Numbered from the stretch's first letter, positions 24,119 to 64,000 are shown. The stretch: 64,000 nt of DNA from Vairimorpha necatrix (GCA_036630325.1 CP142726.1:496001-560000); one strand, 5' to 3'. The notes: generated by a model not told the origin, from the letters alone. Numbers and translations are program-made.

Positions 24119-24321
24119 TCACTGTCTCTTGTGATATCACCAGTTGTATTCGAGACGCATCTTACTTCTTTGATGAAGATTTCTAATTAAGGAAATAAGC
24201 AACCGAAGAGGGTGACTTATCGTATAGTTTTTTAAACCAACGACAAAGTAAAAAGGATTACCAGAACATGGGAGATGAATATAGTTTAGAATATTTATAA
24301 TTGTATATTTTTATTACCTTA

Positions 24322-24370
24322 TGTTATAATCAGTAATAATATTAAACCCCAATTATGTTAAGCACTTATA
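24322..24370 (+). repeat. 5' LTR (49 bp, TG...TA)
   Basis: Identical to 27414-27462. Confidence 0.93.
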
Positions 24371-24930
24371 TGGGGGCGATACCTAAAGAAGAGTTCACAA
24401 GAGAGGACTGTGGCCAAGTGGTCAGAAAGAGGTTACAGGAGTTAGAGCGTACATTGTATGAATTGGATTTGAGAGATGTGGATAGAGAGAAATGGAAGAG
24501 TGAGCTGTTCAAGTTGGCTTCGATGGATTTAAAAGATTTTATTGTGAGAAATATCAAAAAGGAAGAAAATATTGAAGGAATAAGGAAGAAGCTATTGTTA
24601 AGGATTAAGGAAGTAGAGGAGGAAGAAAAGATATATAAGGAAATGAGAAAAATTATTTCTAGGACTATAAATGAAGAAATTAGTAGAGAACAACCAAGAC
24701 AAAAATCGAGAGTACCGAGATGCTTCTATTGTGATAGACAAGGGCATAGGGTGTTTGAATGCAGACTGAAGATTAATAGAGATAATTATTATAAAAAGAA
24801 TAACAAGGATAACAGTTGCAAAATGGAAGTAGGTAGTGAATCAGAGTCAAGTCAGGAGCGAGATTTTAGAAGATCAAAAAGAGGACTTAGAGTCAAATTT
24901 GAGAAAAATCAAAAAGAATATGCCGTTTAA
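24355..24930 (+). CDS. gag: Short Gag with CCHC zinc knuckle; ATG lies inside the LTR
   Basis: CFYCDRQGHRVFEC; N-terminus similar to the ORF at 39220. Confidence 0.85.
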   Translation: MLSTYMGAIPKEEFTREDCGQVVRKRLQELERTLYELDLRDVDREKWKSELFKLASMDLKDFIVRNIKKEENIEGIRKKLLLRIKEVEEEEKIYKEMRKIISRTINEEISREQPRQKSRVPRCFYCDRQGHRVFECRLKINRDNYYKKNNKDNSCKMEVGSESESSQERDFRRSKRGLRVKFEKNQKEYAV

Positions 24931-24965
24931 GAGGAGAGTAAGAGAATCAGATTAAATTTAGATAA

Positions 24966-27397
24966 GTATGCAAGAGTTTTGGAGAGGTTTTTAAGTTAGG
25001 AAAAGAGGAGATAGAAAATTGTAAACTGGAAAAATGTAAAATTAATACTGAAGCGGGTATGAAGGTATTTAAAAAGGGACAAATGGTTCCGCAGGCGTTG
25101 ATAAAAGATACAGAGCTACATCTAGAAGATTTATTAAAAAGGAAAGTGATAAGAGAGTCAAATTCAAGTTGGAAGAATCCTATAAGGTCAATCAGAAAGC
25201 CCAATGGTGAGATAAGACTGGTTAGTAATTTGATGGCATTGAACGATATTGTAGAAAAGGACGAGTATAGATTGTCTAACATAAGAGATGTTGTAAGAGC
25301 TACACAAGGTGCAAAATATATGACGGTTTTCGACTTAAAAGAGGCCTTCTATAGTATTGAGATAGAGGAGGAGGATAAACATAAGACGGCGTTTGATTTT
25401 AATGGCAAGGTTTATGAATGGAACTCTATGGTTATGGGATATAAGAATAGCCCGCAGATATTGCAGAGAATTATGGATAGGATTTTTAGAGATATGAAAG
25501 GCAAAGGAGTAGAGGTGTATATGGATGATATTGTGTTGTACAGCCGAACGATAGGAGAACACGAGCAATTAGTGAAAAGGGTATTAAATAGACTGAAGGA
25601 AAACAATATGAAGCTGAATGCAAATAAAGTTCAGTTTTGTCAAAGGGAAGTTAAATTATTGGGAGTCACTTTAAATGGAGAAGATATAATACCGTCAGAG
25701 ATAAAGAAAAATAAAGCCCTAGAGTTTCCGATACCAACATGCGTGTCAGATGTAAGAAGATTTTTAGGAATGACGGGTTGGTTCAGAGATTTTATTAAGA
25801 ATTACGCTGGATTGACAGTTAGGTTGACAGATAGTTTAAAAGGGAAGAATGATAATTGGAAGTGGACGGATGATATGAAAAACGAGTTTAATAATTTAAA
25901 AGAAGTATTGAAAGGCCTAGGAAAGCTGCAAATAGCAGACTATGATAAAGAGTTTTTGTTGAGGACTGACGCTAGTAATGTAGGCATGGGCGCAGTACTG
26001 TTACAGAAAAATAATCAAGGAGAATGGGTGCCAGTACAGTGGGCGTCTAAGAAGTTTACCGTTACGGAAGTTAATTATGGTATATCAGAAAAAGAAATGT
26101 ACGCAGTTTTTTGGGGCGTTAAAAAGTTTGAATATGAATTAAGAGGTAGGAAATTTAGAATAGAAACTGATCATAAAGCGTTGGGCGAAATAAGAAACAA
26201 GCCCGACTTTAAGAATGCTAGAATTAATAGATGGGTCGAGAAGATTCAGGAATTTGATTTCGTGATAGAATATAGAACTCCAGAAAATATGGTCGTAGCC
26301 GATGCGCTAAGTAGGGTATATACAAAAGAAAAAGATGCAAAGAAAAAGAGAAATGAAACACGCCGTGATAGACAAAAAGAAGGGAAAAGAAATAAGCATG
26401 TAAAAATTGTAGAAGGTAAAGAATACTGGGTATTTGATAGTGGTAGAGAAGGCGAGATGCCTTTGGAACAAGACAGAGAGAGATTAATAATGGATTGTCA
26501 TGTAAATTTGAGCCACAGAAGCAGAACAACGGTATATTATGAGTTGAGGAAACAGTATTATTGGCCAGGAATTAAGGATCAGATCGAAAAGGTCCTTAAG
26601 AATTGCGAGACTTGTCAGATTTTTAATAGAAAAACGAGTGGCGGTACTGATTTAGTGAACACGACAAGATATTTAGAGAAGGTTGGCTTAGATTTAATAG
26701 AATTTAGGGATGAGAAAGCGTTTATTGTTTTGGCAGTTGATTACTTTACAAGGAGATTATGGGGCAGAGTATTGAAGAGCAAGCACGCATCTGGAATTGC
26801 CGAATTTATCAAGGATTTGTGTAAACAGGGTAGAAAACCAGAGGAAATCATTACGGATAATGGTAAAGAGTTTTGCAACGAAAAAGTTACCGAGCTATGT
26901 AGAAATTTGATATTAGTCATAGAAAGGTCAGCGTTGAGTCGCACAGAAGTAATGGAAGAGTAGAAAGAGTTATTAGAACTGTAAGAGATAGTATTTTAAA
27001 GAGCCAAAAAGAGAAATTCGAGAACAAGGTTTATGAAGCTATTGAGAAATATAATTTAAGTTTTCATGCTGGTATTAAGTGCACACCAGTAGAAGCTTTA
27101 ACCGATAATACAGGAAATGTTAGTATGGAGAATAGTCCAGAGGGAAAGTATGCGCAACAGTTCAAAAGTTGGTTTAGAGAAAAGTTCAAAAGGAACCAGA
27201 TAGTTAGGGTTGCCAAGAATGAGAATTTAAAGGGATGTAATAAGTATAGTAAGGGTCGATTTTTAGACATGGGAAGAGTGATTGAGCTATGTCCAGGGGA
27301 TTCATATATAGTGAGATTAGAGAATGGAAGGTTGGTGAAAAAAAGGCATTATGATCTTAAGGGTGTAGTTGATTTAAAGTATGTTGAAGGAGACTAA
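24966..27397 (+). pseudogene. pol: Pol (RT, RNase H, integrase), one frameshift near 26910
   Basis: YMDD, TDAS, ETDHKAL, HHCC, LD...TDNG. After the shift it reads SHRKVSVESHRSNGRVER to the stop at 27397. First ATG is 25059. Confidence 0.93.
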
Positions 27398-27413
27398 CCG
27401 TCTGGAGGGGGGA

Positions 27414-27462
27414 TGTTATAATCAGTAATAATATTAAACCCCAATTATGTTAAGCACTTATA
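27414..27462 (+). repeat. 3' LTR (49 bp)
   Basis: Identical to 24322-24370; preceded by PPT, followed by TSD. Confidence 0.93.
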
Positions 27463-27467
27463 CCTTA

Positions 27468-30400
27468 TTTAAAAAAGGGGGTAAAGAGAGAGCAGGAGGA
27501 AAAAACTGAAAAAATTACAAAACAAACATCTAAAGCAAATATGGACAAAAGACAACAGAAGAGAAAGAACGGAGCCAGAACACACCAGTGTGCCCACTCA
27601 ATCCACTTCTGAGACTCTTGCAGCAGTACTTGTGAGTACTGAGGCGAGTGAAGAAGAGTGGCCTCAAAGAGTATTTCTATCAATTATAAGAGATTTGGTA
27701 GAATGCCAAGAGGGGGGGGGGTGGAATAAAACTACCGAGTTCTTCTGTGAAAATTTTGGGTCTATCATGAGTTCACTAGGATTCAAGGGCAAAGCGAAGA
27801 AAGCGCTCACTAGTAATAGTGGTAGACAAATGACGGCTCGTGAATTCTTAATGAATTCTATTAAAAGAAGAAAAGCCGAAACTGGCTCGAAAGAAGGAAA
27901 TAGTCTCTTCGAAACCGAGCTCTTCCTGAAAGCACAAAAATTGTTCTTGGAGAAACTACGTTGTATTCAGGACACATGTGTGGACCAGGTAGAAAGAACA
28001 AGGAAGATTTCTTCCTTGAAGGGTGATCTGTTGAAACTTGATGCTACAGTCAAGGCGGTAGATAGTCATGTTAGATACCATATCCCTCATAACATGACAG
28101 AGATGGCAAGGATACTGCAAGCTGCACAGATCTGTCTTCAGGAAATGACCAGTAAGAAGCCTAAACTTCGTCTTGGAAAGAAAGTATCTTGAAAAAGATT
28201 ACTGAGATCGAAGACAAGGTGGTGCTTATCAAAAAGCCAGGGCTTTCGATAAACTATCAAATGAGGAAAAGCGTGAAGTCAAGATGTAATGCGTGAACTC
28301 AACATGCTTGCATGTTTGCACCGAGACACTTCTGAAGCTATAGCTATACTCAACGAGAGGAAAGCCATATACTAAAGGAAGCTAGAGGTCGCAGACCGAC
28401 GCGGAGAGCATAGGCGTGAAAATCAAAACTTTGAGCTATATAGAAGCAATTTCTATAGAAAACTCAAGTGTGCCAATAAGGTACTCAAAATGTAAGCAAA
28501 GAAGATATTAGTTCATTCTGGTCTACCATGTGGAATAAGAAAAAACAATTCGAAGACTGCAATAGTTTCGAGGAGTATCTTCTAGAATACATTCCTGATA
28601 GCCAAGATAAGATCACTTTCCCAACCTTCCAAGAATTTGTAGATATTATTAAATATTTACCAAATTGGAAGGCTGCGGGCTGTGATTGAATCTTCAATTT
28701 CTTTATTAAGAAGTGTGAAGCTCTACATTCATTCCTTTACAAGATTGTTAAGGAAGTATGCCTGGATGGAAAGAACTTGAAGCTTGGTTCTACAAGGGGA
28801 TAGCTTATTTAATGCCCAAAGGTACCTCCGCTAGTGGTAATGAATTCGGGCCCATTACTTGTATATCGAACCTCTACAAGCTTACAACGAAATGCACTAT
28901 GAAAGTAATGCAGCTAATTGTAGAAAGTAGAGGACTACTAGCAGAGAACCAACTAGAGACAATTAGACAAGTCCAGGGAGCAAAAGAACAAGCTATGATT
29001 AATATTTCAGTCAATATGGAGCATGGAAACAAGCTGAAGACCATGTGGATAGATTTAAAGAAAGCCTACGACTTATAGACCATTCTTATCTATTAACATG
29101 TATTAGCAAGTTGAATCTCCCTCAATGGATAAGTAAATTCTTAGAAGTCACGGTTAAAAGATGGCACATTGAGATAAAAACAGGATCGGAAACGATACTG
29201 AATAAGAAGATTGGGATCAAGTCCATTATATGCCCAGAAAAAACTTAAGTCCATTATGTGCCCAGAGTTTGTAGTTAAGTCCATTATATGCCCAAATCTT
29301 TATAAATCGATAATTTTAAAGACAAATATCCAAAACGAAAAATATAATGAATAATTTTAATCATGTTTTGCTGCCAACAAAACTGCTAGACTTCCCAACA
29401 AATTTTCTACGAACTCATTCTTAAACATGACCTCTTCCAAAATTCTGGTAATTGGCTTTTCTTTATCCCACACATTGCCTTAATTTTTCCTTTTATTCTG
29501 TTCCATAACGACTCGACTGTCTGTGTGTTAATTCCAGTCTTGGGATTCACAAAATAAAATTTATGGTTGACCATCTCATGATTAAACCCGGAGTATATTT
29601 TGAATTTCAACATAAGCAGCCCCGCTGTCGGAATAAATAGTTGTGCCGGGCATGCATACATCGGTGATTATTGGATATAAAGTATTTCTTGTTCTATTAG
29701 AAAAAATTTTTTAACTGAATCTTGCAGGGCTGATGCTTGTATCAACAATTCCGAATACCCATACCTGCCCACTTAGCCACCTACCGCGATTATATATTGT
29801 TTTGTGTACAAACAGGCTTTCTTCAATTTGGCATATTTTGCCTGAACCACCTAGTCTAAATATGGTTCTCAACAAAATATTTGCCCACAAGAGTTCTTAA
29901 TTTTCAAAATATCTTTTTGATCAATATTTTCTGAATGCAAAAGTCATTAGCTATATCCATAAACTGTTTGTCTGCTGCCCAAAGATAAATGACAGTAAAA
30001 ACATCGATTATGGGCATTCTAAAATCCTTAAAAAAGGAACCGTGTCTAATGCTTAAAGTGATGCTATACTTCGGAAACAACTTATTTTTGCATGTCCAAC
30101 AGCGACCATCTATAGTTTCTTTTGGTCTTTCAACCATTTTCAATCCACAACCGCAACAAGACATTTCATTGAGAAGCATTTCCCCCCCTGTAGGTATTGT
30201 ATGTGCTTCTCTACACTCATTTGTTGGAATATCATATTAGTTTTCGAAGTCAGAAAGTTCTCTTCGACTCATTAAAGGGTTAGCAACTTGCTTTTGAAAA
30301 TTCAAAAAATTGATAAAAAACTTAAGTCCATTATATGACCAGAGTTTTGAGTTAAGTCCATTATATGCCCAAAATTTCTAATCCTGGGCATATAATGGAC

Positions 30401-32225
30401 TTGATCCGAAGATTGAAAGAGGCATATTACAAGGTGATTCCTTGTCGCCGCTTTTGTTTGTACTATGTATGGCCCGTTGAGCGGGAAACTGAATTCAACT
30501 TACCCAAAAGTAGGAATACAGACTCACTAAAGTGTTTATGTAACAAACCATCTTCTATTTATTGATGATCTTAAGCTCCTCGCAGAGAACAATGACGTTT
30601 TAAAACTGATGAATGAAAAAACACAGAAGGTTTTCTAAGCTGTAGGTTTAGAAATGAACAGGAGTAAGTCTGCAACAAACTGTAATGATTGTAGTGAAGA
30701 TGTAGTAGTACTAGAAGGGCATCAAGGATACAAATCCCTAGGAATAACAGAGGATGCCTCTAGTGCTGTCAAAAGAGAGACTTTTGAAAAAGTAAGAAGT
30801 GAGATCCTACAGAGGGTTGAAAAACTGTGCAAGACTCAATTAAATGGTAAGAATATGATTCGAGCTATAAACGAGCATGCAATATCAGTAAAAAACTATC
30901 ATGTAGGATTATTAAAATTAGAACCAATAGATTTCAAAAGTCTCGATTTTGATATCCGACAGGTACTTATCAAGTACCAGGTTCATCTACGGCCAGCCTG
31001 CAAGGAAAGACTATACCTCCTAGGTGCGAAATGGGTAGAGGCCTCATAAGTATCGAAGATAGAGGCGAAAGTATGCTTCTGAATATTTTTAAAACATTAG
31101 ATGGGTCTAGAAATTGCTCACTAAGACGGGCAGTGATACTTAGTAGAGGCAAAAAACAATTTCCTTTTATTTACAATTAACGAGTATCTAAGGATCAGGT
31201 ATAGCTTTGTAGGAGACATAACCCAGAAGATGCTAAAAGAATCCCAAAAAGAAGCGCTTTACAACAAAATTAACATAAGGATAAACCATGGAAAGTTGTT
31301 TAAAGCTAGGGACAATGATTTAGTAAGCATTAGGGACTCTTCTGCCTGGCTAGTTAAAGGAAACAATCAGGCTAGATCCGAAATATCTTCTGTGGATAAG
31401 AGGGACAATGTCCCCATTGTAAATCTCATAGGAAGACCGTGGATAATTTGGATACCAAGTGTGATCGAATGCTGGGTTTTGATTATATGAAAAGACACAC
31501 GAGGTAGTTAGATGCATTCATCTCTTACTATGTATTAAATATGGGTTTAAGAAGACAAAGAAAATACGTGGACACTCAGTACAAGAGATCATGGAAAATG
31601 ATCGTGCAGAAATAAGACCAGAATCGAGAATATCACCTAATATAAAGGTGACTCATAATAAGCCTGATATTCTTGTGTTTGACAAGAAGAAAGAAATTTT
31701 AATAGTTGAAGTTAATATAACCAACCAGGATCGACTTACTATAGTTGAGAATGAAAAACTATGAAAATATGACCTTCTTGCAAATGTACTGGGACTAATA
31801 CATAAATCCAGGACAAGAATAGTTCCTTATGTAATAACATGGGATGGGGGGATCAAATATCACAGAAAGTACATCAGGGAGCTAGAAATCCAACCTTCCT
31901 GGAAGCATATATCTAGTCTATTGTGATGAAGAAGACTCTAACGTTCAACTCTTTGGAACGACGACGAGGAAATGATCAGGAGGATGCAGGAGAAGAAGAA
32001 GTTGTCTGAGCTGTAAGCGCACTAGCGAATATGGCGACTGTTAAAGAAATGGTGTCGGCAAAGAAGAATGAAGCTGAAAAAGTGAAGTTGGAAAACATTA
32101 ATAATTCCACAGAAACCAATGTCTGTGAAGAGCTGAATGCCATGAGCGATACCGTGGAAGGCTGTGCTATGAATATCTAATCTTAATGACAAATTAACTC
32201 AATAAATCTTTTAAAATTTCATCTA
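27468..32225 (+). mobile_element. Near full-length decayed non-LTR retrotransposon with C-terminal restriction-like endonuclease (R4/Dong-like), interrupted by a Merlin
   Basis: LPNWKAAG.D, PITCISNLYK, WIDLKKAYD, RGILQGDSLSP, FIDD, YKSLGI; then CPHC zinc motif, NKPDILVFD and KYDLLAN. Confidence 0.9.
29214..30407 (-). mobile_element. Merlin element inserted in the RT of the R4-like element
   Basis: Perfect 24-bp TIR GGATCAAGTCCATTATATGCCCAG; exact 8-bp TSD GAAGATTG; broken transposase ~30272-29360 (QIEES, VNH..FVNP.TGINTQTVESLW). Confidence 0.95.
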
Positions 32226-32449
32226 AATAAAAATTAGAATGTATAATTTATACAGTTAATATGTTTAATATAGTATTAGTTCGGGTTGGAAGATGGACCT
32301 TTGGATCGGTTCTAAGAGGCAAAAAACCAAGAAAAGTACCAATAAAAGTTATAATGGCAAATAAAAGTAATTCAAAGTGACTGTTTTTAATAACCCTTCT
32401 GAGGTTCTCGATATTTTTTAGATGTATATTCGGATTTACTTTTTACAAC

Positions 32450-34130
32450 GTTGGGAAGTGACAATGAAAAAGGAGAAAAATCCAATATACAGCTTTTAAG
32501 TACATTATTCCATAGTAACACTGTAACTAGTACATATTTCAGCTATAAAAATCGTATTTACATGTTACTTGCCAAAACTATTTTGTTGAATTATCTTATG
32601 TATATTACAATATCGACATCTGTGTTTAAAAGTACAAAAAATTGTACTCTAATATTTATGTCATTGTTCAAAAGTTCTAAAAACATTTCTATACCATATT
32701 ATAAAATCTAAAAAATCATTTCTGCACATCTCTTTGCATTTTCTATCTGCAGAAGTTTATGCATGGGTCCTAACTGCATCATTATAAATTTCATTCAAGA
32801 AAAAAGTTGAGTCATTTAAAGCATATAGGTCTATATTTTCAGAATCATTTGCGTTTAAAACATCTGATAACCTTTCCAATCCTATTTCTTCTTCCTCCCA
32901 TTTTTGTTCATAATTTTCATTATTAATCAAATACATGCTACCACCAATTCTATATGCGTTTATTTGAACTCTGGTGTATACTAAACATAAAATATGCGTT
33001 TTTCTGCCAGTAATGTACGATAAAATGGTTATATGACGTTATAGCTTTATATCGTACTCTGGTTCATCGTCGCAACTGCTTTTGGCCATTGTTTAGAAAC
33101 AAACTTTAATTTTATAGTTTGATTATATTGTTTTATTGGGCTTTGCATTCATGGACATCTTGCTCTCCCCTTACATGTCTTTTTTCGTATTCTTGTTAGA
33201 CCGAATAGTACTTGTTTCACAAATCATTGTCAGAATGTAGAAGCATAAGACAAGGTGTGAACACCAAAAGCTTAGGTTGAAATTCTCTTCGTTATCATCA
33301 CATAAAGCGGTGTAATCGTCCAACAAAGCTTTTGTGTGAATCAATTATATTAAATTACAATTATATTCTTCTTAGTTTATGACACATCAGTTATTCAATC
33401 TAGTCAGTAACATAATCATTTAAATATTTAGCGACAAAAAGAAAAAACCTGGGGGTATTGATGAATTTCTCTTGCATAGTCTTTTGTAGTCATAATTTAA
33501 TAGTCAGATGCCGATACGTTAAAGGCTCGGCTGGAAAAAAATCTTTAGGGCAATAAAGTTTTCTTTGTATAACGTAATCTGAACAACTCTGATCAAGGAG
33601 GTTTCCGCGATAATATTAAATTTGTATAAGGGAAATATGTTGCCTAAAGTCATGAAGTATTGAACATCTAGTGTAGAAACGTACCTTAAGGCCAAAAAAT
33701 ACTTTTTCGTGGCGATTTATCAATAGCATAAGTAACTTTCTGATATGGCTCTGTTAATGTAAAATGAACTTCATACCACATGTTATATAATGACAAATAA
33801 ATGACGAAATTCTGTTCTAATCTTATACGCGTCAAGCAGCTCTCTCAGTTAGTCAATTCGCAACACTAACTTCTTTTGGTTGCCCACAAATATAAATAAC
33901 GAAATTAAACGCTAAACACGATGCCTAAGAATTTCAATGGCCGCGCTTCACCCCAGGCCTATGACGGTTTTAACAATGAAGCAAATTCAAATACATTGAC
34001 AACTACACTGAAAATTCACGAATCTCATAATTGTAGCATCATTGAATGCTTCTTGCTCTGGTATAATTTCAGGTAAACACGCCAGCTAAAATCAGCGTTA
34101 GTGTAAAAAAGATAGAAGTAAATTTTTTAA
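32450..34130 (-). pseudogene. Possible decayed host gene of unknown function
   Basis: Signal-peptide-like FFTLTLILAGVFT near 34100 and protein-like stretches (ENYEQKWEEEEIGLERLSD) broken by stops. No family recognised. Confidence 0.25.
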
Positions 34131-35390
34131 AATTTTACTGTTTTTTGAAAACGATTAGGAATACTAAGCAATGAAGAGATAAAGATTTATGTTTTTGTTA
34201 CTAAACAAGAAGAATAAACCGAAATGTTTTAAAGATGGTGGTATACGGGCAAAGTAAAACTGAAATGCTTTATGTTTATGCCAATTTCCAAAATGCAAAC
34301 ACAGACTTTTCAATTTAAAGTAATTCTTTATTTTTAATAGTGTGATAGGTCATTTATTATGTTAAAAAATATTAACTTGTGGATCTTACAGATTATAGTA
34401 ACTCATATTTCAAGAGTGCTAGCCGTAACAAACAAATTCTAGGCTACTCCTTAAAAAATTTAAAAGGAATATTTGAATAACCCAGGACAAGAGGAGCGGT
34501 TAACCCGTTTGTAATAATAGACAAAAGTAAAATTAATAAAAAAAATAAATACCATAGGAGCAGATTGATCAAAGTTTTTGATTCGAAAATACGATAAGAA
34601 CTATAATTAAAATGATAGTCATCGACATCAAAAAAAAGAAACAAGTATAGGAATTTTCGATTTATTTCAAGCACCTAAAATATAGATCCGTCATTCCTTC
34701 TCATGTAGAAAGTCCTTAATGAACATGACATACTTTTATAGAGATCATAAAATTGCAAAAGCGGGTCAAATATTTCGAAATAAAAAAAAAACAGGAGTAT
34801 ATGCAAACTCCATTTAATTAAAAAAGTGCCTTTAAGGCCCTATCTTAATAGTTTTAGGGCATATTGTCTTAAGATATATATATATATTTGAGTCATAATA
34901 TGATTTAAATAAATGCAGTGAAAAGAGTAAACAACATTAAAAACTTTTTTTTGATTTACTAGTCTCATTTTATATCTTTGCATATCATTCTTACATCAGC
35001 ATTAGAATTTATGGGGGTTCTGATATTTTATCTTCTTTTCCGTTTTTTAAAAAGGGACATTTTTTAACAATTTTGACCAATTCATTTTTTACACTAATGC
35101 TGACTTGGCCCAAAGATTTTTACATACTTAATTTATAACATTGTTAGTTACCTGTAATAAAATCCATATCGCACATGTCATTTATTTACGCTTAAATTTT
35201 AAAGTTCAAAATATAATCAACAAAAGTACTAACAAAAAAAAAGAATAATATAAGATTAAGTAGGAAATGATGATAAATGTTTTGTTTTTTGGTAGGATTT
35301 TATTTTGATTTATAAGTGTCAATAATTTTATTCTTATTTTCCGTCCCCTCTTTTGGAAATGATTTTAAATACTTTTTGTAGCCAATCAAA

Positions 35391-35765
35391 ATCTACAGCA
35401 AGTAGAAAACGATAAGTTAAGAAAGTATGATGTCCTTGCGAACGAACTGGGCCTAATATATGGTTTTAAAACAGAAATAATTCCCTACGTAATCACTTGG
35501 GAAGGTATAGTGACTAAGTTTCACAAATCTTATACCACAAGACTTGAAATCCCTAAGAAGGTAGAAGCGTACATCCAGATGATCACGCTAAAGAAGACGC
35601 TAGAAAGCATTTCTCTGGACTACCGAAGGAGAGGAGACGAAGCCGATGTGGAAAGAACTATGGAGACGAGAAGCCACCTACAAGCAGGAGACGTTAACGC
35701 GGAACCTATCCTTGTTAAACTATAAATATAAACTACAATAAGCATACCCTAATTAAATTCATTTA
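35391..35765 (+). mobile_element. Severely 5'-truncated R4/Dong-like insertion (endonuclease C-terminus and 3' UTR)
   Basis: VENDKLRKYDVLANELG...IPYVITWEG...KKTLESIS; 16-bp TSD TTTGTAGCCAATCAAA (35375-35390 / 35766-35781). Confidence 0.9.
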
Positions 35766-36012
35766 TTTGTAGCCAATCAAATCTGTCCATTTGTAAGAAG
35801 ATGATTGGTCAGTATTTAATCGCCTAGGACACCCCCCTCAATTAATCTTTGACGTATCCTTTTTTATATGACCTTTATTTACCCTAAATTCCCCAAGGCA
35901 TTTTTTATTTCACTAAAAACGCATCTTCGCTTAATATTTTGACGATGGCATAACCGTATCCATTTAGCTTCCAATTTATTGCAGCCTAGGTAATCTCTAA
36001 ATATTAATGTGG

Positions 36013-36181
36013 TATCCACCACTGAGGAAAGTATTTAAAATATTTTTATTATTCATTTTATGCTTCCTTTCCATTATTCCGTACCCCTCTCCAGATAAAA
36101 TATTTAAATAAATGTTGGAGGGAAAACGGGTCGAATTTGGAGGGAAGATTTTAGAAATATATTTTATGATATTTTGTATAT
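36013..36181 (+). repeat. Partial copy of the MITE-like repeat at 54091-54561
   Basis: TATCCACCA.TGAGGAAAGTATTT...CCCCTCTCC.GATAAAATA...GTTGGAGGGAAAA shared with 54091-54260. Confidence 0.85.
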
Positions 36182-36232
36182 TATAATTAAACGTTTTCGC
36201 CAGCCTTAAACTTTTCTCTTATTTCTATTTTC

Positions 36233-37449
36233 GGTTAAATTGCGATGTTACCCCCCCCCCCACACCCCTAAAAAAATAAAAAATGGGGGAAAAAATAAAA
36301 AAGGAATAAAATTGTACCCCTAAAATGAGCATAAAGAATTTTAGAAAATTAATATAAAAAAAAGAGGAATAATTTTTATTTCTTCTTGAAAAAAATATAT
36401 TAATGGTACCAACGTGCAATAAATGCATGACACCCATGACCAAAATTAGAAATAATTTGGACAAATATCGTTGTTTCTTACGACGAAATAGGAGAAAATG
36501 CTCAAACAAAGGTAACATTTACAAAAAAAGCATTTTTAAAAGTTCTAGATTAGATATCGAAAATCTTTTAATTTTGCTGTGTGAATGGGTTAAAGGTGTA
36601 AGCAATGATTCGGATACTATCGAATTGGATATAGATAATAGTACCGTATCTCGCGGGGTTACGCGTTTTAATAACGCTGTATTCTTATCCTATTTCAACT
36701 ACCTTCAAACAAAACCATAGGAGGTTTAAATTACGTAGTTGAAATAGACGAGACATTGCTTGTTAAAGTAAAAACCATAACGGTAGAATCCTTCAATACC
36801 AAGTTTGGGCCGTTGGTGAGGTTGTACGAGGAGACAGCAATTCTTTTTTTTCGAAATTGTTGAAAATCGATCAAGAACTACTCTTGTCGATTTAATAAAA
36901 CGGAAAATCGCACCTGGATCTACAATTATTACTGATTGTTGGCGGGGTCATGAAGGGTTTTCGGAACTATGTCCGGATTATAACTATTTACATTTAACTG
37001 TAAATCATAGCCAAAATTTTGTAAATCCAACAACAGGCGCCCACACCTAAACAATTGAGGGAATGTGGTCTGTAATTAAAAGGGAATTGCGCAAAGAAGG
37101 AACAAGCCATGGTTCTTTAATGAATCTCATTCGAAAACTTTATATAGCTCGTTTTAAATTAATTTATAGAGAATCACTACTTGAAAGAATGTTATGCTTT
37201 TTTGAGATTGATATATATCATTTTTAAATTACGATTTAGCGCCCGAATTTGATTTTGAATTGATTGAATAAATTTTGTTTCCCCTTTTTTTTATTTTTTC
37301 CCCTTTTTTTATTTTTTTCCCCTTTTTTTATTTTTTTCCCCTTTTTTTATTTTTCCCCCTTTTTTTTATTTTTTCCCCTTTTTTTATTTTTTCCCCCTTT
37401 TTTTTATTTTTTTAGGGGTGGGGGGGGGGGGTAACATCGCAATTTAACC
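36233..37449 (+). mobile_element. Merlin element with broken transposase and subterminal tandem repeats
   Basis: TIR GGTTAAATTGCGATGTTACCCCCC; ORF from 36403 (CNKC) then VEIDET, TDCWRGH, VNHSQNFVNP, IEGMW; ~19-bp CCCTTTTTTTATTTTTT units at ~37280-37415. No TSD. Confidence 0.92.
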
Positions 37450-39219
37450 GTAAGACCTTTTTTTTGAGTTTCTTCTCCAATCACATTTTTCTCCTTAGCA
37501 TATTATTAGCGTATTGTTGTCTTAATTATTAATATAGCCTCTAATACTTCTTACATCAGTATAGTACGGAAAGTCATATGTTAAAGAACTTTTAACTGAT
37601 TTACAGACTTGTATAGAAAATACAAAAATTATCAATTTAAACTCGTTCTATAATATTCACCTCCTATCTCTTAGTTTTTGAGAACTTAAAAATATTTACG
37701 GGATTTAATATGCTCATCTGTATGAAACGAATTTACAATTTTTTTTCATAATTCCGAAAATAATTAATAAAAAATTACTATTGTTATGGCTTTTTTGTTT
37801 CTGTTCGATTCCACCCTCTTCTCGAAAACCCCGTTTTCACTTTTTTTATACTAGATTTCGTTATTAGTTATACATCATCTAACTGTTAATTTATATGTAT
37901 TTATAAACATATTTCTAAGTGATCTCTTGATTATTTGTTTTTTTCATACGATGTCTCACCATTGATGAAATATTTTACACGTTTGATTTTTATAATTTCT
38001 ATTGGGATGTAGATACCTATATCGCAACTACATTTATGAGTATTACATCGATCAAATAAACATTTTTTCTAGTTCTTCATTTTAAATAGAAACCCGAATA
38101 ACCAGTATAAATAAGAATCCATTCCATTTTAATATGGCGAAGCATAACTAAAGATCTGAGAAAACTTCCTTTCGATTAGTACTTGTACATTTCTTAAGTT
38201 CTAAACTTCATCATAATTATCTTCGTAATACATAATATTTGAAATTGCTTTTGATTTTTAAATTGATTTATAAATACGGCTAAAGTAAGCATTAGCTACA
38301 AAAAATCGATATAGGGTTTTTTTGTTTTTTTTTGCCCCTTTTTTTTAAAAATGGAGGAAAGAAAATGATGAGGAAGGAACAAAAATAAAAACTAGAATAA
38401 ATATTTTAATAAATCTTCAAACACTGAAGTTGTGGAGTTTCTTTGGATCATATATCTAAATAAATAAAGTTTAGCGCTATTTGATGATCTATTTCTATTT
38501 GGTATAGATTGTTTTAAAGATCTCCAATTACCTTCTATGGTATTGGTATGTACTCCTGTATTCGGATCTCTAAAATGTAATGTATGATTAACCATATGAT
38601 GTTGGTTAAATATTGTATTTAAAGAATGATACGCTCTCCACATATCGCTATATATAATACTGCTTCTACTTACATATTTTAAAAGAAGTTCAGTAAGTGT
38701 CCTTTTGTTTCTTTTCTTAATATATACTACTATGATTCTACGTTGGATGGTACGTTCAACCATTCCAAAACACCAAAATCCTTTTACTAACTTCCCTCTA
38801 TTGTATTTATTCTTCCCAATCTTAGTCTCATCAATTTCCACTATAGTATTATCGCCTCCAATAGTCCCTATACTAGATAAATACTTATCATAAAGACTCA
38901 TGTGTTTTAACTTTTTTAGAATGGAAGATATAGAAGATTTAGTACAACCTAAAACTTGAGAAATGGACTTACGTGAATAACCTAAAATCCATAAATTTAG
39001 TATTTGTAATATTGTAATGTGATTTATCCTAGACTCCTAAAAGAAAGTTCCATTCCAAATTGAAATTGTGTTTTTACATGAACTCCATGGACACCTTATG
39101 AGACTCCTTTGCTCCCCTCTTTGCTTCATTTTTTGATTACAGACGCTACATTTTTTATTTTGTTTCTTTATTATTAGATCATTATATGTTATATATCCTT
39201 ATTATTTTTACCCCTCATT

Positions 39220-39480
39220 ATGGAAAATAAACACATGGGGGCGATACCAGAAAATGGGTCTACAAAGGAGGACCGTGGCCAAGAGGCTAGAATAATATTA
39301 AAAGAGGTTAAAAGGATTGTTTATGAGTTGTTTTTAGAGAAAATTGATGAGTGTGGATTTAAATTAGAAATTTTTAGGAGAGGTTCTATTTTATTGAGAA
39401 ATTTTATTGTTGAGAGGATCTCGCAAGAGGGTAGTTGGAAGGAAATTGAGGAAAAATTAGAGTTGCTAGCTAATCAGTGA
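39220..39480 (+). pseudogene. gag: Truncated gag N-terminus starting within the LTR
   Basis: MGAIP.....ED.GQ shared with the gag at 24355; ends at the deletion junction ~39472. Confidence 0.8.
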
Positions 39481-39487
39481 GAAGGAG

Positions 39488-40771
39488 ATGTATGCAGTCT
39501 TTTGGGGAATTAAAAAGTTTGAATATGAACTACGCGGAAGAAGATTTAGGGTAGAAACTGATCATAAGGCATTGATCGAGATTAGAAATAAACCAGCATT
39601 TAACAATAATAGAATTAACAGGTGGATTGAAAAGATTCAAGAGTTCGACTTTAGCATTGAATATAGAGAGCCTAGTACCATGGTTGTAGCAGATGCACTG
39701 AGTAGGGTACATGAAAATGAGAAAACGCTAATGAATAAGGAGAGAAGTATTAAACAGGCACAGGGTAAATGGGACAAGCATGTTAAAGTTGTTGATGGGA
39801 AGGAAATTTGGGTATTTGACTCTGGTAGAGAAGCGGAGATTCCAAAGAAAGAATTGCGTGAAGGTTTAATTGTCAATGCTCATGAAAATTTGGGACATAG
39901 AAGTTTAGGATCAGTGTACTATGCAATGAAGTTTGAATTTTATTGGCCGGGTATGAAGAAGGATATCGAGGATGTTTTAAAGAAGTGTGAAGTTTGCCAA
40001 ATATATAATAGGAAAAAGAGTGGTGGTTGTGATTTTGTTAGTTCAAGATTTTATTTGGAAAAGGTTGCTTTGGATTTGATTGAGTTTAGAGATTTAGGGA
40101 AATATGTGTTGGTCGTGATTGATTATTATACTAGGATCGTTTGGGGAAAAGTAATAGAGGACAAACGCGGAAGCTCGGTTGTAGGATTTTTAAAACAGTT
40201 GTGTGGATCAGGAATGAAACCGGTAGAAATAATTACTGACAACGGTAAAGAATTTAGTAATGAATATATGAGGAATTGGTGTTCAGAGGAAAATGTATTA
40301 CATAGGAAAGTAAGCGTAGAAAGTCATAGAAGTAATGGAAGAGTGGAAAGGGTAATAGGAACCATAAGAGAAGGAATATTGAAAGATGATGCTGTGAATT
40401 TTGAAGCCAAGGTTAATAGATGTATATGGCGTTATAATAACAGCTATCATGAAGGGTTGAGATGTACACCGTTTGAGGCCTCAAGAGACGAAACGGGCCA
40501 TGTTATGATCGAGAATGGACCTGAAGGATTTTATAGTAGGAGGTTTGTGGCTCGCAAAAGAGAGAAATTCTATAAAGGTCAGAGAGTTAGGGTAGCGAAG
40601 AAAGAGAACTTATCGGGTTGTAGTAAGTATGAGAAAGGAAGGTTTTTAGGATATGGTGTTATCAAGGAAGTTTGCGGAGGTGACTCGTACTTAGTTAGTT
40701 TGGAAAATGGTAGGATCGTGAAAAGGCGGCATTATGATTTAAAAGGTCTGCTTGGGATTAATGAGTTCTAG
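39488..40771 (+). CDS. RNase H C-terminal half plus uninterrupted integrase (427 aa)
   Basis: ETDHKAL, H..LGH...C..C, ALD, TDNGKEF, SNGRVER. Confidence 0.85.
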   Translation: MYAVFWGIKKFEYELRGRRFRVETDHKALIEIRNKPAFNNNRINRWIEKIQEFDFSIEYREPSTMVVADALSRVHENEKTLMNKERSIKQAQGKWDKHVKVVDGKEIWVFDSGREAEIPKKELREGLIVNAHENLGHRSLGSVYYAMKFEFYWPGMKKDIEDVLKKCEVCQIYNRKKSGGCDFVSSRFYLEKVALDLIEFRDLGKYVLVVIDYYTRIVWGKVIEDKRGSSVVGFLKQLCGSGMKPVEIITDNGKEFSNEYMRNWCSEENVLHRKVSVESHRSNGRVERVIGTIREGILKDDAVNFEAKVNRCIWRYNNSYHEGLRCTPFEASRDETGHVMIENGPEGFYSRRFVARKREKFYKGQRVRVAKKENLSGCSKYEKGRFLGYGVIKEVCGGDSYLVSLENGRIVKRRHYDLKGLLGINEF

Positions 40772-41673
40772 TATGAGACTACCGTCTTGGAGGGGGGATG
40801 TTATATATCCTTATTATTTTTACCCCTCATTATGGAAAATAAACACATTATATATGATCTCCAATTCTTCTCTTGTCCGAATTCTTTCCTCCATTTTTAA
40901 AAAAAAGGGGCAAAAAAAAACAAAAAAACCCTATATCGATTTTTTGTAGCTAATGCTTACTTCAGCCATAAATACTGTATTTGTAATTATTTTTATCACT
41001 ATACTGTTCTACCGTCCCATATACATTTTTTTCTAGTAAATTAAGTAAGATGTCAAGTTTCAATTTGTGTACAAACAAAAATTTGACAGGCATGAAAAAA
41101 AAACAATAATAAAAACATTTAATTATGCAAATAAATGATTCTGTAAATTATTGTTACAGATTGAGAAGTTTTAAAAAACGAGTTTTTGACATTGAATTAA
41201 ACAACTTTTAAAAATTTACAATAATTTTACCCTTTTATTATTTCTCATTCTAGGAGAATAAAAATTTTTAAATTTTATCATAACTCAATATAATGAAAAT
41301 ATACGTTGTTTTTTGGCCCAATGTTGTGTATAATGTAAATTTGGTGTATTGTACAAAGTAAGTACCCCTAAAATTATAGCTTTTTAAATAAGAGGTGGCT
41401 TTGTATAAATCGTATAATTCTTATAAATAAGACTAAATAAGTTGTTTTTTATTAAAATATTTTAAATGCACCGGTTAAAACTTTTCCCCGTTAAGAGCTA
41501 CAATCTTACGTTTCATTTTGGACAATAAAAATATTTCTTTTTATTTTGCCATTGTATTACGATCCCCCCCCCTTTTTCGTTTTCTAATAAAAATACCTGT
41601 TCCGCTCTAATAAACAGTTTTCTAGTCCTTGAAGGTTTTTAAGATTTTAAATCACGTTGGCTCTAAATTTTAC

Positions 41674-45560: not shown

Positions 45561-46024
45561 TTTTAAATAGTTTCCTTTATTCTTTTTTCTAATTTAATCG
45601 CAAGTGATAGTTTAAAGGGTCGCGCTTGCCTACACACACAAAAAAGACATAATATATAATAATTTCCATTAGTTGTTTCTCTGAAGTTTTTAAAAGTTTG
45701 ATGGTAAGTTCTCGGGCCGACAGTACTTTCAGATCAATAATTTATTGAATATACTGAGCTTTTATAAAGATCTAGCTTCAACATTGAGGTGGTCACGAGG
45801 GATGAACCCTCGTTTAAAGTAGGCCTCTAGTAAACTACTTGTAAACGGCTCCTTGGGCCTTGTTTGTTTATTATTATAAAAATGTTTATTGTTACTTTTC
45901 TGCATTTGCTTCTTCTTTCTTTTTGTTGGGGTAGAAAAATAATATTTTTTTAAAAATTTTTAAGAAATTCCATTTTGGGAAAATGGAATTTTACATGTGG
46001 TTGTAATACCACATTCTGCCACCC

Positions 46025-49000: not shown

Positions 49001-49159
49001 TTCATAATGGGTATTGGGTTTCTCGACTTTTGTTAAAATTTCATTTTCTATTAGAACGAGGTAATTATAAATTTCATAAATTTCCTTACTTATCATATTT
49101 TGTCTTGTTAATTCTAAATGTGTGAAATCTCCTAGTCCCTTTAAAAATACTTCTTCCAT
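46025..49159 (-). CDS. pol: Gag C-terminus/Pol polyprotein: CHHC knuckle, protease, RT, RNase H, integrase
   Basis: WCSLHKSNYTHDTRRC, LLDSGS, FIDD, VDAS, HEFGLH...CKIC, TDIFGP, SDNGRQF, SNGVSE. Confidence 0.95.
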   Translation of the reverse strand: MEEVFLKGLGDFTHLELTRQNMISKEIYEIYNYLVLIENEILTKVEKPNTHYEKEKFDNNRNTQFNNPKWCSLHKSNYTHDTRRCYALQNKKKLPEFADHKDKNMIIKQRSQCPEDITVIGKIGNKDVKMLLDSGSRRNYITKSAVNEYNLKKEECARIKTIFGNNITEESNEMVNTVVTIKEKPFEVKFCVLEKLPVNFVLGNEFLDMHCAKLDYAEDAVELDGLRIDMVHKEGNAEELLDKEIVNKLCQVSGSKGFNKLLDFYIKENKKFTSMKTNLASFNVIQPVIKTKKITYTVPFKYIEKAKMEIKRLLDADIIEKSSSDIISPAFFIEKKNKDLRLVVDYREVNKALQDDPWILPQIEDCLTIMGSNKFFTQIDLSNGFNQIKIDEQSKKYTSFFLLGQQWQYKRIPFGIKPGPKLFQRNISNILGDFDNLFVFIDDIVIYNKTKESHLISVEKILETLYSKNFQINFEKSKFFQPEIEVLGYKINHEGIFPKTNYLNDRIFEKEIKTKNDLQKLLGVINWYRKFIPDLSIRINKLTDMLKNKNENKIKVTTEMRKEVNRIKEWILGNHKLSFPDYNSKFTLHVDASEIGLGSTLTQRDKIIRYYSKKFSGPELNYNIVEKEFLAIVLSMLNFKNIIQGSYVEIYTDSKNCIYENKIETSRINRWKLLLNEFSFSLNHIDGNKNCMADNLSRNFIGIGNNENNNHEEIIKLNQECCLRDKNGNFIFDKEKRYIVKFNQVKKFISFMHEFGLHRGIYTLYYNIKRYYYIKRIFKEIRNTISQCKICGIYKNKHPKKYITGNIVAQRKFEKVSTDIFGPFSLDNFITSERKEVGYILTMTDIYSRYTKLYFLYTINSDSVLRCFENWITTLGKPSSIISDNGRQFISKTTKDYLIKEKILHTLIPSYTPSSNGVSEAINKTISFALSFNKGLNIREVVMKAENAINFNYNRTIKSSPFSIINGFNIHDPLQRDYNHISVLKEEKIYLVKVGDICRERIYNAKKLGPKWSKRKKVLCVGNKGYWIKLKGNSGWTHIKNIKL

Positions 49160-52783: not shown

Positions 52784-53213
52784 CTAGTCACGCCCTTTGA
52801 TTTTGTTTATAGTTTTATATCGTTGGGCAATAAAGACATTTTTTCGCATGCTTACACACCAGGCAAGAAGTCTCCGACGTAGAAGTACGATGTGTCTCAT
52901 ATACATCTTGTAGTATTATAAAAGACTGAGATGTAAATCGAGGCGCACGACTATATGTGCTCTTCGCTATATCCTCAGAAATATTTCTCATCATCCTATC
53001 AAAGGGCAGTCTACTACATAAAAAAGTAATGCTCTTTTGGTAAAACCTTATTTTTTTTAAAACAGTAGAAGTAGGTCTACTCATTTTCTTTTTGGTCCGA
53101 CTATGAGTAATTAAGGTATTTTTCATGCCGAAAAAACATAGCCTAGACTTGGTATGAGATCTTTTTTGGCTTTTGTCTTCTGCAATAGAAGTGTAGACAC
53201 GAGTTATAGCCAT
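52784..53213 (-). pseudogene. Divergent histone H3 variant (CenH3-like features), two C-terminal frameshifts
   Basis: VLKKIRFYQKS..LCSRLPFDRMMRNISED...RFTSQS...LQD...CKHAKK; shifted frames give MSLLPNDIKL and INKIKGRD*; CCCC before ATG 53213. Confidence 0.85.
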
Positions 53214-63962: not shown

Positions 63963-64000
63963 GCCGTGGGGAAAGATCGAAATTTTTTTCGTGGCTTTTG

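Follow-up and report, generated by a model that had tools for sequence, protein, structure and literature searches.

Two probable defective copies of ultra-compact Ty3/gypsy elements with 49-bp terminal repeats in Vairimorpha necatrix

Introduction

Can a repeat of only 49 bp be the complete long terminal repeat (LTR) of a retrotransposon? The question is raised by two elements in a 64-kb stretch of Vairimorpha necatrix DNA (the window, analysed over its whole length of 64,000 nt). Our analysis suggested, with a probability of about 75%, that both are defective copies belonging to two related families of ultra-compact microsporidian Ty3/gypsy (Metaviridae-type) elements, and that the 49-bp repeats are complete LTRs. 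Such a lineage shows how far a retrovirus-like element can shrink: its LTRs, of 49 bases, appear to combine the ends needed for integration with a promoter of host type and the initial codons of the gene.

Results and Discussion

Structure and Boundaries of the Two Elements

The features of the two elements are as follows.

Element 1 (24322-27462)
24317-24321, no strand: 5' copy of the target site duplication (TSD) CCTTA, repeated at 27463-27467
24322-24370, plus strand: 5' LTR, 49 bp, exact copy at 27414-27462
24355-24930, plus strand: gag part of the polyprotein (ORF list; tblastn with P0001 residues 1-208 over 24370-24972)
24371-24383, plus strand: primer binding site (PBS) TGGGGGCGATACC, identical in element 2
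~24721-24762, plus strand: CCHC knuckle in gag (ORF list)
24978-26909, plus strand: reverse transcriptase (RT), RNase H and the N-terminal two thirds of integrase (Pfam; tblastn)
26906-27397, plus strand: C-terminal part of integrase, in the third frame (tblastn with P0001 residues 854-1014; ORF list)
27395-27397, plus strand: stop TAA closing integrase (ORF list)
27397-27413, plus strand: ACCGTCT context and polypurine tract (PPT) GGAGGGGGGA (27404-27413), same in element 2 and similar in the relative L007
27414-27462, plus strand: 3' LTR, exact copy of 24322-24370
27463-27467, no strand: 3' copy of the TSD CCTTA, matching 24317-24321

Element 2 (39187-40847; 1661 bp)
39182-39186, no strand: 5' copy of the TSD TTATA, repeated at 40848-40852; empty site in X1 and X2 contigs
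39187-39235, plus strand: 5' LTR, 49 bp, exact copy at 40799-40847
39220-39477, plus strand: N-terminal 86 residues of gag (tblastn, 94% identity to P0007 residues 1-86)
39236-39248, plus strand: PBS TGGGGGCGATACC (window search)
39473-40771, plus strand: C-terminal part of RNase H and complete integrase (Pfam; tblastn, 98% identity to P0007 residues 593-1024)
40782-40798, plus strand: CCGTCTT context and PPT GGAGGGGGGA (40789-40798), the same PPT as in element 1
40799-40847, plus strand: 3' LTR, exact copy of 39187-39235
40848-40852, no strand: 3' copy of the TSD TTATA, matching 39182-39186

The two copies of the element 1 repeat showed 0 mismatches, a third match was absent from the window even with 3 mismatches allowed, and 2 matches were reached in 0 of 100 shuffles. 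That of element 2 was likewise exact, with no further match in the window, and a second match was absent from the shuffled sequences. The PBS lies directly 3' of each 5' LTR, and with up to 2 mismatches allowed the window held just these 2 matches, against 0.10 expected by chance; the PPT abuts each 3' LTR and is preceded by ACCGTCT or ACCGTCTT. All of the features reported in the initial annotation, namely two related elements with exact 49-bp LTR pairs, 5-bp TSDs and a common PBS and PPT, were recovered, as was the divergence of the two LTRs, which are identical at 29 of 49 positions without gaps. The LTR ends are TG...TA in element 1 and TG...CA in element 2 and in the relatives L008 and L009.

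Class and Relatives

Pfam identified RVT_1 (2.2e-36), RT_RNaseH (1.6e-32), Integrase_H2C2 (2.7e-14) and rve (1.9e-08) in element 1, in that order, and its RT-to-integrase part shares 77% identity with residues 211-854 of P0001 (tblastn). The domain order RT-RNase H-integrase, with integrase last, holds for element 1 and its relatives. A 14-member family profile matched the Ty3 Gag-Pol structure 7q5b, its best solved relative, from RT to integrase with an E value of 2.6e-109, and the Ty3 structure 4ol8 with 1.8e-94. Intact relatives, including P0001, P0003, P0004 and P0007, comprise a single gag(CCHC)-RT-RNaseH-integrase frame of ~1000-1040 aa in a total of ~3.1 kb, with ~100 nt of noncoding sequence outside the frame. 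Full-length relatives range over 996-1156 aa on contigs of ~3.0-3.6 kb, sizes that bound the noncoding internal part and not the LTR, and dozens of full-length frames were present among the matches listed. Gag is ~140 aa long with a CCHC knuckle, and the preceding ~120 aa are helical in the AlphaFold model of P0007. The domain order, Ty3 as best solved relative and the ~3.1-kb relatives agree with the earlier proposal of a miniaturised Ty3/gypsy lineage.

The best named matches came from Nosema granulosis, V. necatrix, V. apis, Pseudoloma, Enteropsectra, Nematocida and Pancytospora. The "Tf2 polyprotein" labels that some named relatives carry in their source are transferred names. The clade itself is not new: microsporidia-specific single-polyprotein Ty3/gypsy elements are already published, and the main-text passages of Parisot et al. 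(2014; PMC4202319) give no LTR length and mention neither "protease" nor "PBS". LTR lengths may already be on record in Xu et al. (2006), in Repbase or in the supplements of Parisot et al. (2014).

Defects and an Empty Target Site

Element 1 is interrupted by one stop and two frameshifts. The stop, a TAA in frame at 24928-24930, ends the gag part, and the frame breaks at ~24972-24978 and ~26906-26909; at position 24928, A instead of T was found in all X1 and X2 contigs covering the stop. To judge from these lesions, element 1 is dead. Element 2 lacks ~1.5 kb, corresponding to residues 87-592, with a deletion junction at ~39470-39477. A 3165-nt X1 contig (record 7) matches 39186-39477 and 39472-40827 and has, between them, 1517 nt that are absent from the window. 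The Pfam RT_RNaseH match of element 2 covers profile positions 50-105 only, and Integrase_H2C2 and rve were also found. Element 2 is therefore short because of an internal deletion and not by design; the longer X1 contig and tblastn contradict its earlier description as a second miniature design. The defects of both copies had been missed at that time.

Any movement of element 2 would have required proteins from intact copies. In two runs (X1 and X2), Logan contigs join 39179 to 40846 and represent its empty target site; they skip 1666 bases, equal to the 1661-bp element and one 5-bp duplication, the sequence between being "not known" by the caveat of the tool. Since both window copies are defective, we infer activity of the lineage from intact relatives and from this one empty site. 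The integrase would make 5-bp staggered cuts.

A Reading Frame Entering the LTRs

In both window LTRs, positions 31-36 read ATTATG, in the gag frame. The ATG (positions 34-36; 24355-24357 and 39220-39222) is also in frame with a second ATG formed by the last A of the LTR and the TG of the PBS, and the PBS would therefore be translated; in element 1 this last A and the PBS read ATG GGG GCG ATA CC (M G A I P). If an ATG overlaps TGG, an M-[G/A/V] start is expected; by eye, 25 of the 30 relatives with 990 aa or more have an N-terminus of the form M-[G/A/V] or M-x(2-6)-M-[G/A/V]. At the other end, the frame of L008, which opens with the final base of the 5' LTR, stops 18 nt inside the 3' LTR, that of L007 ends 14 nt inside the 3' LTR, and in P0002 and P0014 the C-terminus reads through the PPT region as TNRLGGG and INRLEG. 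The predicted frame, which is new here, opens inside the 5' LTR or at the LTR/PBS ATG and, in some relatives, closes inside the 3' LTR.

A Promoter Within 49 Bases

In Encephalitozoon cuniculi, 5' UTRs are <7 nt long and a CCC-like motif lies shortly before the ATG, and examples from Nosema ceranae show the pattern A/T-run, ACCCC, 3-5 nt, ATG (PMC2803860); CCC is over-represented near N. ceranae start codons (PMC2685015). AAUAAA or AUUAAA is located ~20 nt ahead of the cleavage site. The LTR of element 1 starts with TGTTATA, has ATTAAA at 20-25 and CCCC at 26-29 (24347-24350) and ends in TA; the LTR of element 2 starts with TGTTATA, has CCCC at 25-28 and AATAAA at 40-45 and ends in CA. With an A/T-rich run, CCCC and ATG, both look like minimal promoters of microsporidia, and the LTR may be so short because microsporidian promoters are tiny. 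The window itself lends the promoter rule little support: of its 7 non-element ORFs with 150 aa or more, only 2 have CCC within 18 nt of their first ATG. Positions 1 to ~29 would constitute U3, with the att end TGTTAT, an A/T-rich stretch bearing ATTAAA or AATAAA, and the CCC motif; the RNA would begin a few bases upstream of the position-34 ATG, and the remaining 15-20 bases would be R (with minimal or absent U5), serving the first strand transfer. TGTTRNR is an att-type start in Mag-clade elements (PMC3601003). The earlier idea that 49 nt pack att sites and promoter thus keeps its signals, att-type start and host-type promoter-like motifs alike, and loses its fixed length.

It is also conceivable, though improbable, that the repeats are true LTRs without a promoter, that RNA arises by read-through from neighbouring genes, a frequent event in microsporidia, and that the repeat is R only. 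Transcription overrun and long multi-gene transcripts have been described in E. cuniculi (PMC2803860), and the LTR of L009 is devoid of a CCC run. Against this, a CCC or CCCC run precedes the first in-frame ATG by 4-20 nt in both window LTRs, L007 and L008, which is the arrangement described in host genes. Furthermore, a neighbour-dependent element would rarely yield many intact and widespread families such as the dozens of full-length frames listed.

Priming

Priming at the PBS would fall to a host tRNA, possibly tRNA-Pro, implying an RNA whose 3' end is complementary to TGGGGGCGA. The 64-kb window contains no tRNA gene. Matches in two contaminated MAGs fell in bacterial genes.

Priming by something other than a tRNA 3' end, whether Tf1-like self-priming or another RNA, with the 13 bases kept mainly as codons, is improbable. 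It would suit the lack of a matching tRNA in the window and the two MAGs, the transferred Tf2-type labels and the fair conservation that the 45 bases 3' of the PBS likewise show from one family to the other (10-12 identical positions in each block of 15); moreover, at the 11th-12th PBS base the near-identical P0007 encodes T and element 2 encodes I. However, all four LTR/internal junctions (elements 1 and 2, L008 and L009) are A|TGG, fitting the CCA end of a tRNA, and GGG GCG are G+C-rich codons for a window of 30% G+C. By direct reading, PBS and LTR are complementary over CCCC(A) against GGGG(G), 4-5 nt at most, whereas Tf1-type self-priming pairs ~11 bases of the transcript 5' end with the PBS.

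LTR Length in Relatives

Short LTRs recur, as far as boundaries can be inferred, in relatives of the two elements. L008, whose relatives include V. necatrix proteins, has a 58-bp LTR pair 3306 bp apart, flanked by AATAC and GTTTG and thus by no TSD. L009 has 47 nt (TGTTAT...ACA) directly 5' of TGG, and L007 possibly 38 bp; each of these two offers a single LTR with its far boundary set by motif, so that pairs were seen directly in three cases, elements 1 and 2 and L008. This recurrence is new here. It does not fit a length constrained to exactly 49 bp, as originally claimed; roughly 40-60 bp fits better. In line with the expectation that standard annotation would miss the lineage, the default minimum LTR length of LTRharvest is 100.

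That the repeats are stumps of longer LTRs, or products of chance or assembly, was raised since LTRs <100 bp are unusual, found no evidence in its favour and is very hard to credit: in two families TSDs adjoin the repeats outside and PBS and PPT inside, L008 has the same layout, contigs of independent runs end or branch in the same repeats, the full-length 3165-nt contig spans the ends of element 2, and shuffles gave no second match.

Absence of an Aspartic Protease

As far as its sequences tell, the 49-bp lineage is without an aspartic protease, a finding that is new here. An aspartic-protease Pfam family was listed for 0 of the best 93 matches (precomputed column), and protease Pfam matches at E<=1 were found in 0 of 5 intact relatives, against six such families for a control element in the window. 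Pfam negatives alone are weak, because Pfam also missed the protease of L008 with its LLDTGA motif, and the case rests on three other observations. First, residues 141-213 of P0007, from the zinc knuckle to RT, are disordered in the AlphaFold model. Second, D[ST]G occurs in the gag-RT spacer of 2 of 33 relatives. Third, the protease-bearing profile A2 aligned with profile A1 from the RT N-terminus on (A2 342-1080 to A1 239-1017, E 1e-163), and the A2 protease (invariant D208 and G210) had no partner in A1. Without a protease of its own, the polyprotein might function without cleavage or be processed by a host enzyme; cleavage might also come in trans from elements that carry a protease, for example the one at 45784-49846.

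Comparison With Known Systems

The microsporidian groups of Parisot et al. (2014; PMC4202319) and the Nbr elements of Nosema bombycis (Xu et al., 2006) share with the 49-bp lineage their microsporidian hosts, one polyprotein, the RT-RNaseH-integrase order and LTRs at both ends, the clade link to the former being drawn from host names of homologues. A protease is present, according to Gill et al. (2008; PMC2474625), who cite Xu et al. (2006), in nearly all elements of N. bombycis, unlike in the 49-bp lineage.

The L008 group (A2), of ~3.3-3.5 kb and with V. necatrix homologues, resembles the lineage in its short, 58-bp LTRs and in a frame that opens with the final base of the 5' LTR and extends into the 3' LTR. 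It differs in its longer Gag and in a retained protease (invariant D..G of LxDTGA, and ILG); identity is ~33% over RT-integrase, and the PBS of L008 is TGGTGGAGAACA.

Ty3 of Saccharomyces cerevisiae is alike in a PBS starting with TGG, a PPT, a 5-bp TSD and RT, RNase H and integrase. Ty3 has ~5.4 kb, 340-bp LTRs, separate overlapping GAG3 and POL3 frames and its own protease, whereas the 49-bp lineage has 3.1 kb, LTRs of 49 bp, a single frame and a ~140-aa Gag and lacks a protease. Tf1 and Tf2 of Schizosaccharomyces pombe share the single gag-pol frame; Tf1 possesses a protease and LTRs of ~350 bp, and its self-priming uses 11 bases from the element's 5' end.

Mag of Bombyx mori, an animal element, has an LTR of 77 bp. 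Elements of the Mag clade share the TGTTRNR start and comparatively short LTRs with the 49-bp lineage, and mean LTR lengths in Mag training sets are 174 and 213 bp (PMC3601003). The LTRs of the 49-bp lineage are shorter still.

Structure of the short-LTR elements

The two Ty3/gypsy copies in the window represent a kind of autonomous LTR retrotransposon that may be more reduced than any seen so far, a tentative reading to which we give a probability of about 35%. Such elements would be some 3.1 kb long, and their LTRs, about 40–60 bp each, would contain little beyond the integration ends and a minimal promoter of the host type. A single frame would start within the 5′ LTR and read through the PBS, continuing in some members through the PPT and into the 3′ LTR, and one lineage would lack a protease. 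The structure reported for the two copies by the initial annotation (49-bp LTR pairs, TSDs, PBS and PPT) is confirmed throughout:

24322–27462, element 1, 3141 bp, exact 49-nt repeat (LTR1) at both ends, CCTTA on both flanks
39187–40847, element 2, 1661 bp, its own exact 49-nt repeat pair (LTR2), TTATA on both flanks

Sequence reading and repeat search agree on the identical LTR pairs with 5-bp TSDs. Each 49-nt repeat has exactly two occurrences in the window with up to 3 mismatches allowed, no shuffle yields two matches, and the repeat search found no solo LTR of either element in the window. The LTRs have indeed diverged between the elements, as had been claimed, with 29 of 49 positions in common; the conserved blocks comprise the initial TGTTATA, a CCC(C) run at 25–29 and ATTATG at 31–36. 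The PBS and the PPT context are common to both copies as well: TGGGGGCGATACC lies directly 3′ of each 5′ LTR, with no further site in the window even when 2 mismatches are tolerated, and GGAGGGGGGA adjoins each 3′ LTR, preceded by ACCGTCT or ACCGTCTT. In contrast, an ordinary Ty3/gypsy element lies in the same window:

45784–49846, minus strand, protease-bearing element of about 4.06 kb, the bases adjoining its 5′ LTR having no TGG start
45786–46013 and 49620–49846, its LTRs, about 228 bp, 99–100% alike
46025–49183, minus strand, its 1052-aa frame with protease (LLDSGS), RT, RNase H and integrase

One contig each from two public sequencing runs (X1 and X2) links 39179 with 40846 and omits the 1666 bases between them; 7–8 bases fit either side, and the letters between the sides are not known. 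Since 1666 equals the 1661 bp of element 2 plus one 5-bp duplication, these contigs would represent the unoccupied target site. An ORF at 38392–38901 (minus strand), 280 bp upstream of element 2, has an ISXO2-like/Merlin-type DDE transposase domain (E 1.5e-17); element 2 may lie in or beside a Merlin element, and the contigs could derive from other Merlin copies. Another X1 contig, of 3165 nt, covers both ends of element 2 plus 1517 middle bases absent from the window.

Coding content and defects

Both window copies are defective. The coding parts of element 1 are spread over three frames.

Coding features of element 1
24721–24762, CCHC knuckle of Gag (ORF list)
Reverse transcriptase (Pfam RVT_1, 2.2e-36)
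RNase H (Pfam, 1.6e-32)
Integrase zinc domain (Pfam, 2.7e-14)
Integrase core (Pfam)

Alignment with the intact single-frame relative P0001 (77% identity over pol) places an in-frame TAA at 24928–24930 of element 1 and frame breaks at about 24972–24978 and 26906–26909. Position 24928 is A instead of T in all X1 and X2 contigs covering the site, which indicates that the stop is private to that copy or strain. Element 2 is no distinct small design; it is a deletion copy of an element like P0007, a second intact relative, which it matches at 94% over residues 1–86 and 98% over residues 593–1024, and so it is a copy without residues 87–592 (the bulk of gag, the RT and part of RNase H). For a profile of 14 family members, the best solved relative was the Ty3 Gag-Pol structure 7q5b (E 2.6e-109, from RT to integrase). 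The elements fit the structural definition of Ty3/gypsy LTR retrotransposons, protease excepted.

Host range and LTR length across relatives

In the homologue search, 8000 candidates were scored and 379 proteins were obtained at E ≤ 0.001, and the best 120 of the 379 were used. The microsporidia named in these 120 are Nosema granulosis, Vairimorpha necatrix, V. apis, Pseudoloma neurophilia, Enteropsectra breve, Nematocida minor, N. ausubeli and Pancytospora philotis, and a few matches bear bacterial "MAG" labels. The host is taken to be a microsporidian of Nosema/Vairimorpha type. The full-length relatives among them are single frames of 996–1156 aa on contigs of about 3.0–3.6 kb, lengths that show a tiny internal non-coding part and set no bound on the LTR. 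The elements probably belong to a clade of single-polyprotein Ty3/gypsy elements already recognised in microsporidia, for which the main text of Parisot et al. (PMC4202319) gives no LTR length and contains neither "protease" nor "PBS".

Direct DNA support for short LTRs in relatives is limited to three contaminant contigs in bacterial MAGs. L008 (33% identical), a protease-bearing locus with V. necatrix proteins among its relatives, carries two 58-bp repeats at a distance of 3306 bp; the start codon of its 1088-aa frame is formed by the final A of the 5′ LTR and the TG of the PBS TGGTGGAGAACA, and the frame stops 18 nt inside the 3′ LTR. No target-site duplication was found in the L008 flanks, and the Protein Atlas returned generic Ty3 clusters only, with no taxon. 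In L009 (41%), 47 nt of the form TGTTAT...ACA directly precede TGGCAACACC; an in-frame ATG lies within this stretch, six codons further upstream. L007 (50%) shows ACCCGTCTGGAGGAGGGGA followed by an LTR beginning TGTTGG, into which its frame extends 14 nt; if the ACA preceding the next TG marks its end, this LTR would be 38 bp long. The C-termini of two further relatives, P0002 and P0014, are a translation of the same PPT context and LTR start. LTR length is therefore about 40–60 bp in at least two microsporidian groups and, contrary to the length constraint proposed in the initial annotation, is not fixed at 49 bp, given the 58-bp pair of L008 and the probable 47 bp of L009. The broader proposal of a miniaturised lineage with very short complete LTRs is upheld by the window elements together with these three loci.

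L007, L008 and L011 come from one MAG and L009 and L010 from another, the two labels being Clostridium sp. and Turicibacter sp. All five are short A+T-rich contigs encoding microsporidian-type retrotransposons, and they look like eukaryotic contamination of bacterial bins. A metagenome scan with P0001 confirmed no relative; a scan with A1, the alignment of the protease-less group, rested on generic motifs and gave at least 80 loci at 23–37% identity, which were ordinary Ty3/gypsy elements of other organisms and were left out. The viral-contig scan gave 6 loci (23–29% identity), and the PPT-context pattern had no match in viral contigs.

Other features of the window

The window has 30% G+C and also contains Merlin-type and MULE transposases. 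The ORF with the MULE domain (62866–63624, E 1.4e-12) lies between the copies of an exact 34-nt direct repeat (62209–62242 and 63964–63997, 1755 bp apart), and the window ends 3 bases past the second. About nine tandem copies of a 19-nt T/C-rich unit (T-run, CCCC, T-run, A), with a G-run at the end, occupy 37256–37431, and X2 depth is very high at about 35900–37600. A motif of about 30 nt with AAGTCCATTATATGCCCA forms three copies at 29208–29297 and two at 30313–30374, in clusters about 1.05 kb apart; X1 and X2 contigs join across these clusters with skips of about 1202–1206, which suggests a deletion or insertion polymorphism. An ORF at 52815–53279 (minus strand) encodes a core-histone fold (Pfam Histone, E 4.9e-12), apparently one of the few host genes in this transposon-rich window.

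Loss of the protease

No aspartic-protease family occurs in the precomputed Pfam column for the best 93 of the 379 matches, and such families matched 0 of 5 intact relatives at E ≤ 1, negatives that are not decisive alone because Pfam also misses the L008 protease (LLDTGA); the positive control, the frame at 46025–49183 (minus strand, LLDSGS), matched six aspartic-protease families. In the profile–profile alignment, A2, the alignment of the L008 group, matched A1 over 342–1080 and 239–1017, respectively (E 1e-163), and the A2 protease (invariant D208 and G210, plus ILG) had no counterpart in A1. The search patterns located both the CCHC and the WRNP landmark in 33 of 40 relatives with 850 aa or more; in these 33 the spacer measures 101–179 aa (249 in one Nematocida protein), about 55 aa of it belonging to the conserved N-terminal part of RT, and the spacer of two of the 33 contains D[ST]G. 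An A1-based AlphaFold model of P0007 (mean pLDDT 73.5) has a helical Gag part (residues 20–121) and pLDDT below 50 from knuckle to RT (residues 141–213).

A protease-less lineage is at odds with the statement of Xu 2006, as cited by Gill et al. (2008; PMC2474625), that nearly all N. bombycis elements encode protease. Either the N. bombycis elements are other families, like the 4-kb element of the window, or their protease was assigned by position.

Reading frame and proposed working of the LTR

In both window LTRs, an ATG at positions 34–36 is in frame with gag, giving the N-terminus M-L-S-T-Y-M-G-A-I-P for element 1 and M-E-N-K-H-M-G-A-I-P for element 2. The second M in both consists of the last A of the LTR plus TG of the PBS, and as the PBS starts with TGG, the codon after this boundary M must begin with G. 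Counted by eye, the N-termini of 30 relatives of at least 990 aa comprise 17 of the form M-x(2-6)-M-[G/A/V], 8 of the form M-[G/A/V] and 5 of neither; that of the A2 group is MxxMVE. P0039 and P0040, relatives of element 1 in the protease-less group, begin with MVEN, like the L008 group with PBS TGGTGGAGAAC (L008 286–300), and the primer site may therefore be common to both groups.

The sequence upstream of the LTR ATG is ...AATAATATTAAACCCCAATT-ATG in one window LTR and ...TTATTATTTTTACCCCTCATT-ATG in the other. For E. cuniculi, Peyretaillade et al. (PMC2803860) give 5′ UTRs shorter than 7 nt with a CCC-like motif immediately 5′ of the ATG; their N. ceranae examples show the order A/T-run, ACCCC, 3–5 nt and ATG. 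They also describe leaky termination and set the AAUAAA or AUUAAA signal some 20 nt upstream of the cleavage site, and Cornman et al. (2009; PMC2685015) describe CCC as enriched near N. ceranae start codons. This layout and the host signals on record lead to the following scheme. U3 would comprise LTR positions 1 to about 29, with the att end TGTTATA, which matches the att-type motif TGTTRNR (PMC3601003), an A/T run with ATTAAA (LTR1 20–25) and the CCC motif. Transcription would start a few bases upstream of position 34, and R would be the last 15–20 bases of the LTR, leaving little or no U5. The 3′ ends would lie close to the end of the 3′ LTR in the element 1 family and beyond it in the element 2 family, where AATAAA is at positions 40–45. 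A tRNA would prime at the PBS, with which the TGG start in all four junctions seen is consistent. Minus-strand strong-stop DNA, about 20 nt long excluding the primer, would then find its acceptor in the same 15–20 bases of the 3′ LTR. Of the earlier proposal that promoter, att ends and U3-R-U5 are packed into 49 nt, the att end stands, and packing of the promoter is plausible from motif likeness.

TGGGGGC is typical of tRNA-Pro sites, and tRNA-Pro is a candidate primer. The sequences with which the 3′ end of a primer tRNA would pair are:

TGGGGGCGA
TGGTGGAGAAC
TGGCAACACC

In the two MAGs with L007 and L009, matches to the reverse complement of the PBS core were no commoner than in the control; the three exact ones sit within bacterial genes, in their coding sequence. 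ARAGORN predicted no tRNA (0) in any of the 20 loci. The Rfam search of the window gave 0 matches. Self-priming was dismissed, as complementarity is lacking.

Comparison with known elements

The LTR length of these elements is not stated in the available parts of PMC4202319, PMC3614468, PMC2474625, PMC3749934, PMC13174016, PMC2685015 and PMC5012567, and terms for it are absent from PMC11592040. The texts searched yielded no mention of 40–60 bp LTRs, a start codon in the LTR, a translated PBS (in some, PPT) or protease loss. These lengths may well already be on record in Xu 2006, Repbase or supplementary files; the N. ceranae paper (PMC2685015) mentions Repbase entries for Nosema gypsy elements.

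If the main reading is true, R is perhaps only about 15–20 bases, the lower bound on necessary LTR content moves down, and the architecture has so far had no explicit description. LTR size would then be tied to host promoter architecture, the tiny promoters and near-absent 5′ UTRs of microsporidia allowing tiny LTRs. How Gag-Pol matures is a further question raised by a Ty3/gypsy lineage that is complete apart from the protease. As for annotation, the expectation that standard tools miss such elements holds for LTRharvest, whose default minimum LTR of 100 (PMC2253517, Table 1) exceeds these LTRs and makes structural calling impossible; annotation of microsporidian genomes is therefore probably incomplete as to their counts, ages and solo LTRs, and the bacterial MAGs holding such contigs are mislabelled. 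In the Ty3/gypsy training sets (PMC3601003), mean LTR length is 174–695 bp, compared with about 40–60 bp here.
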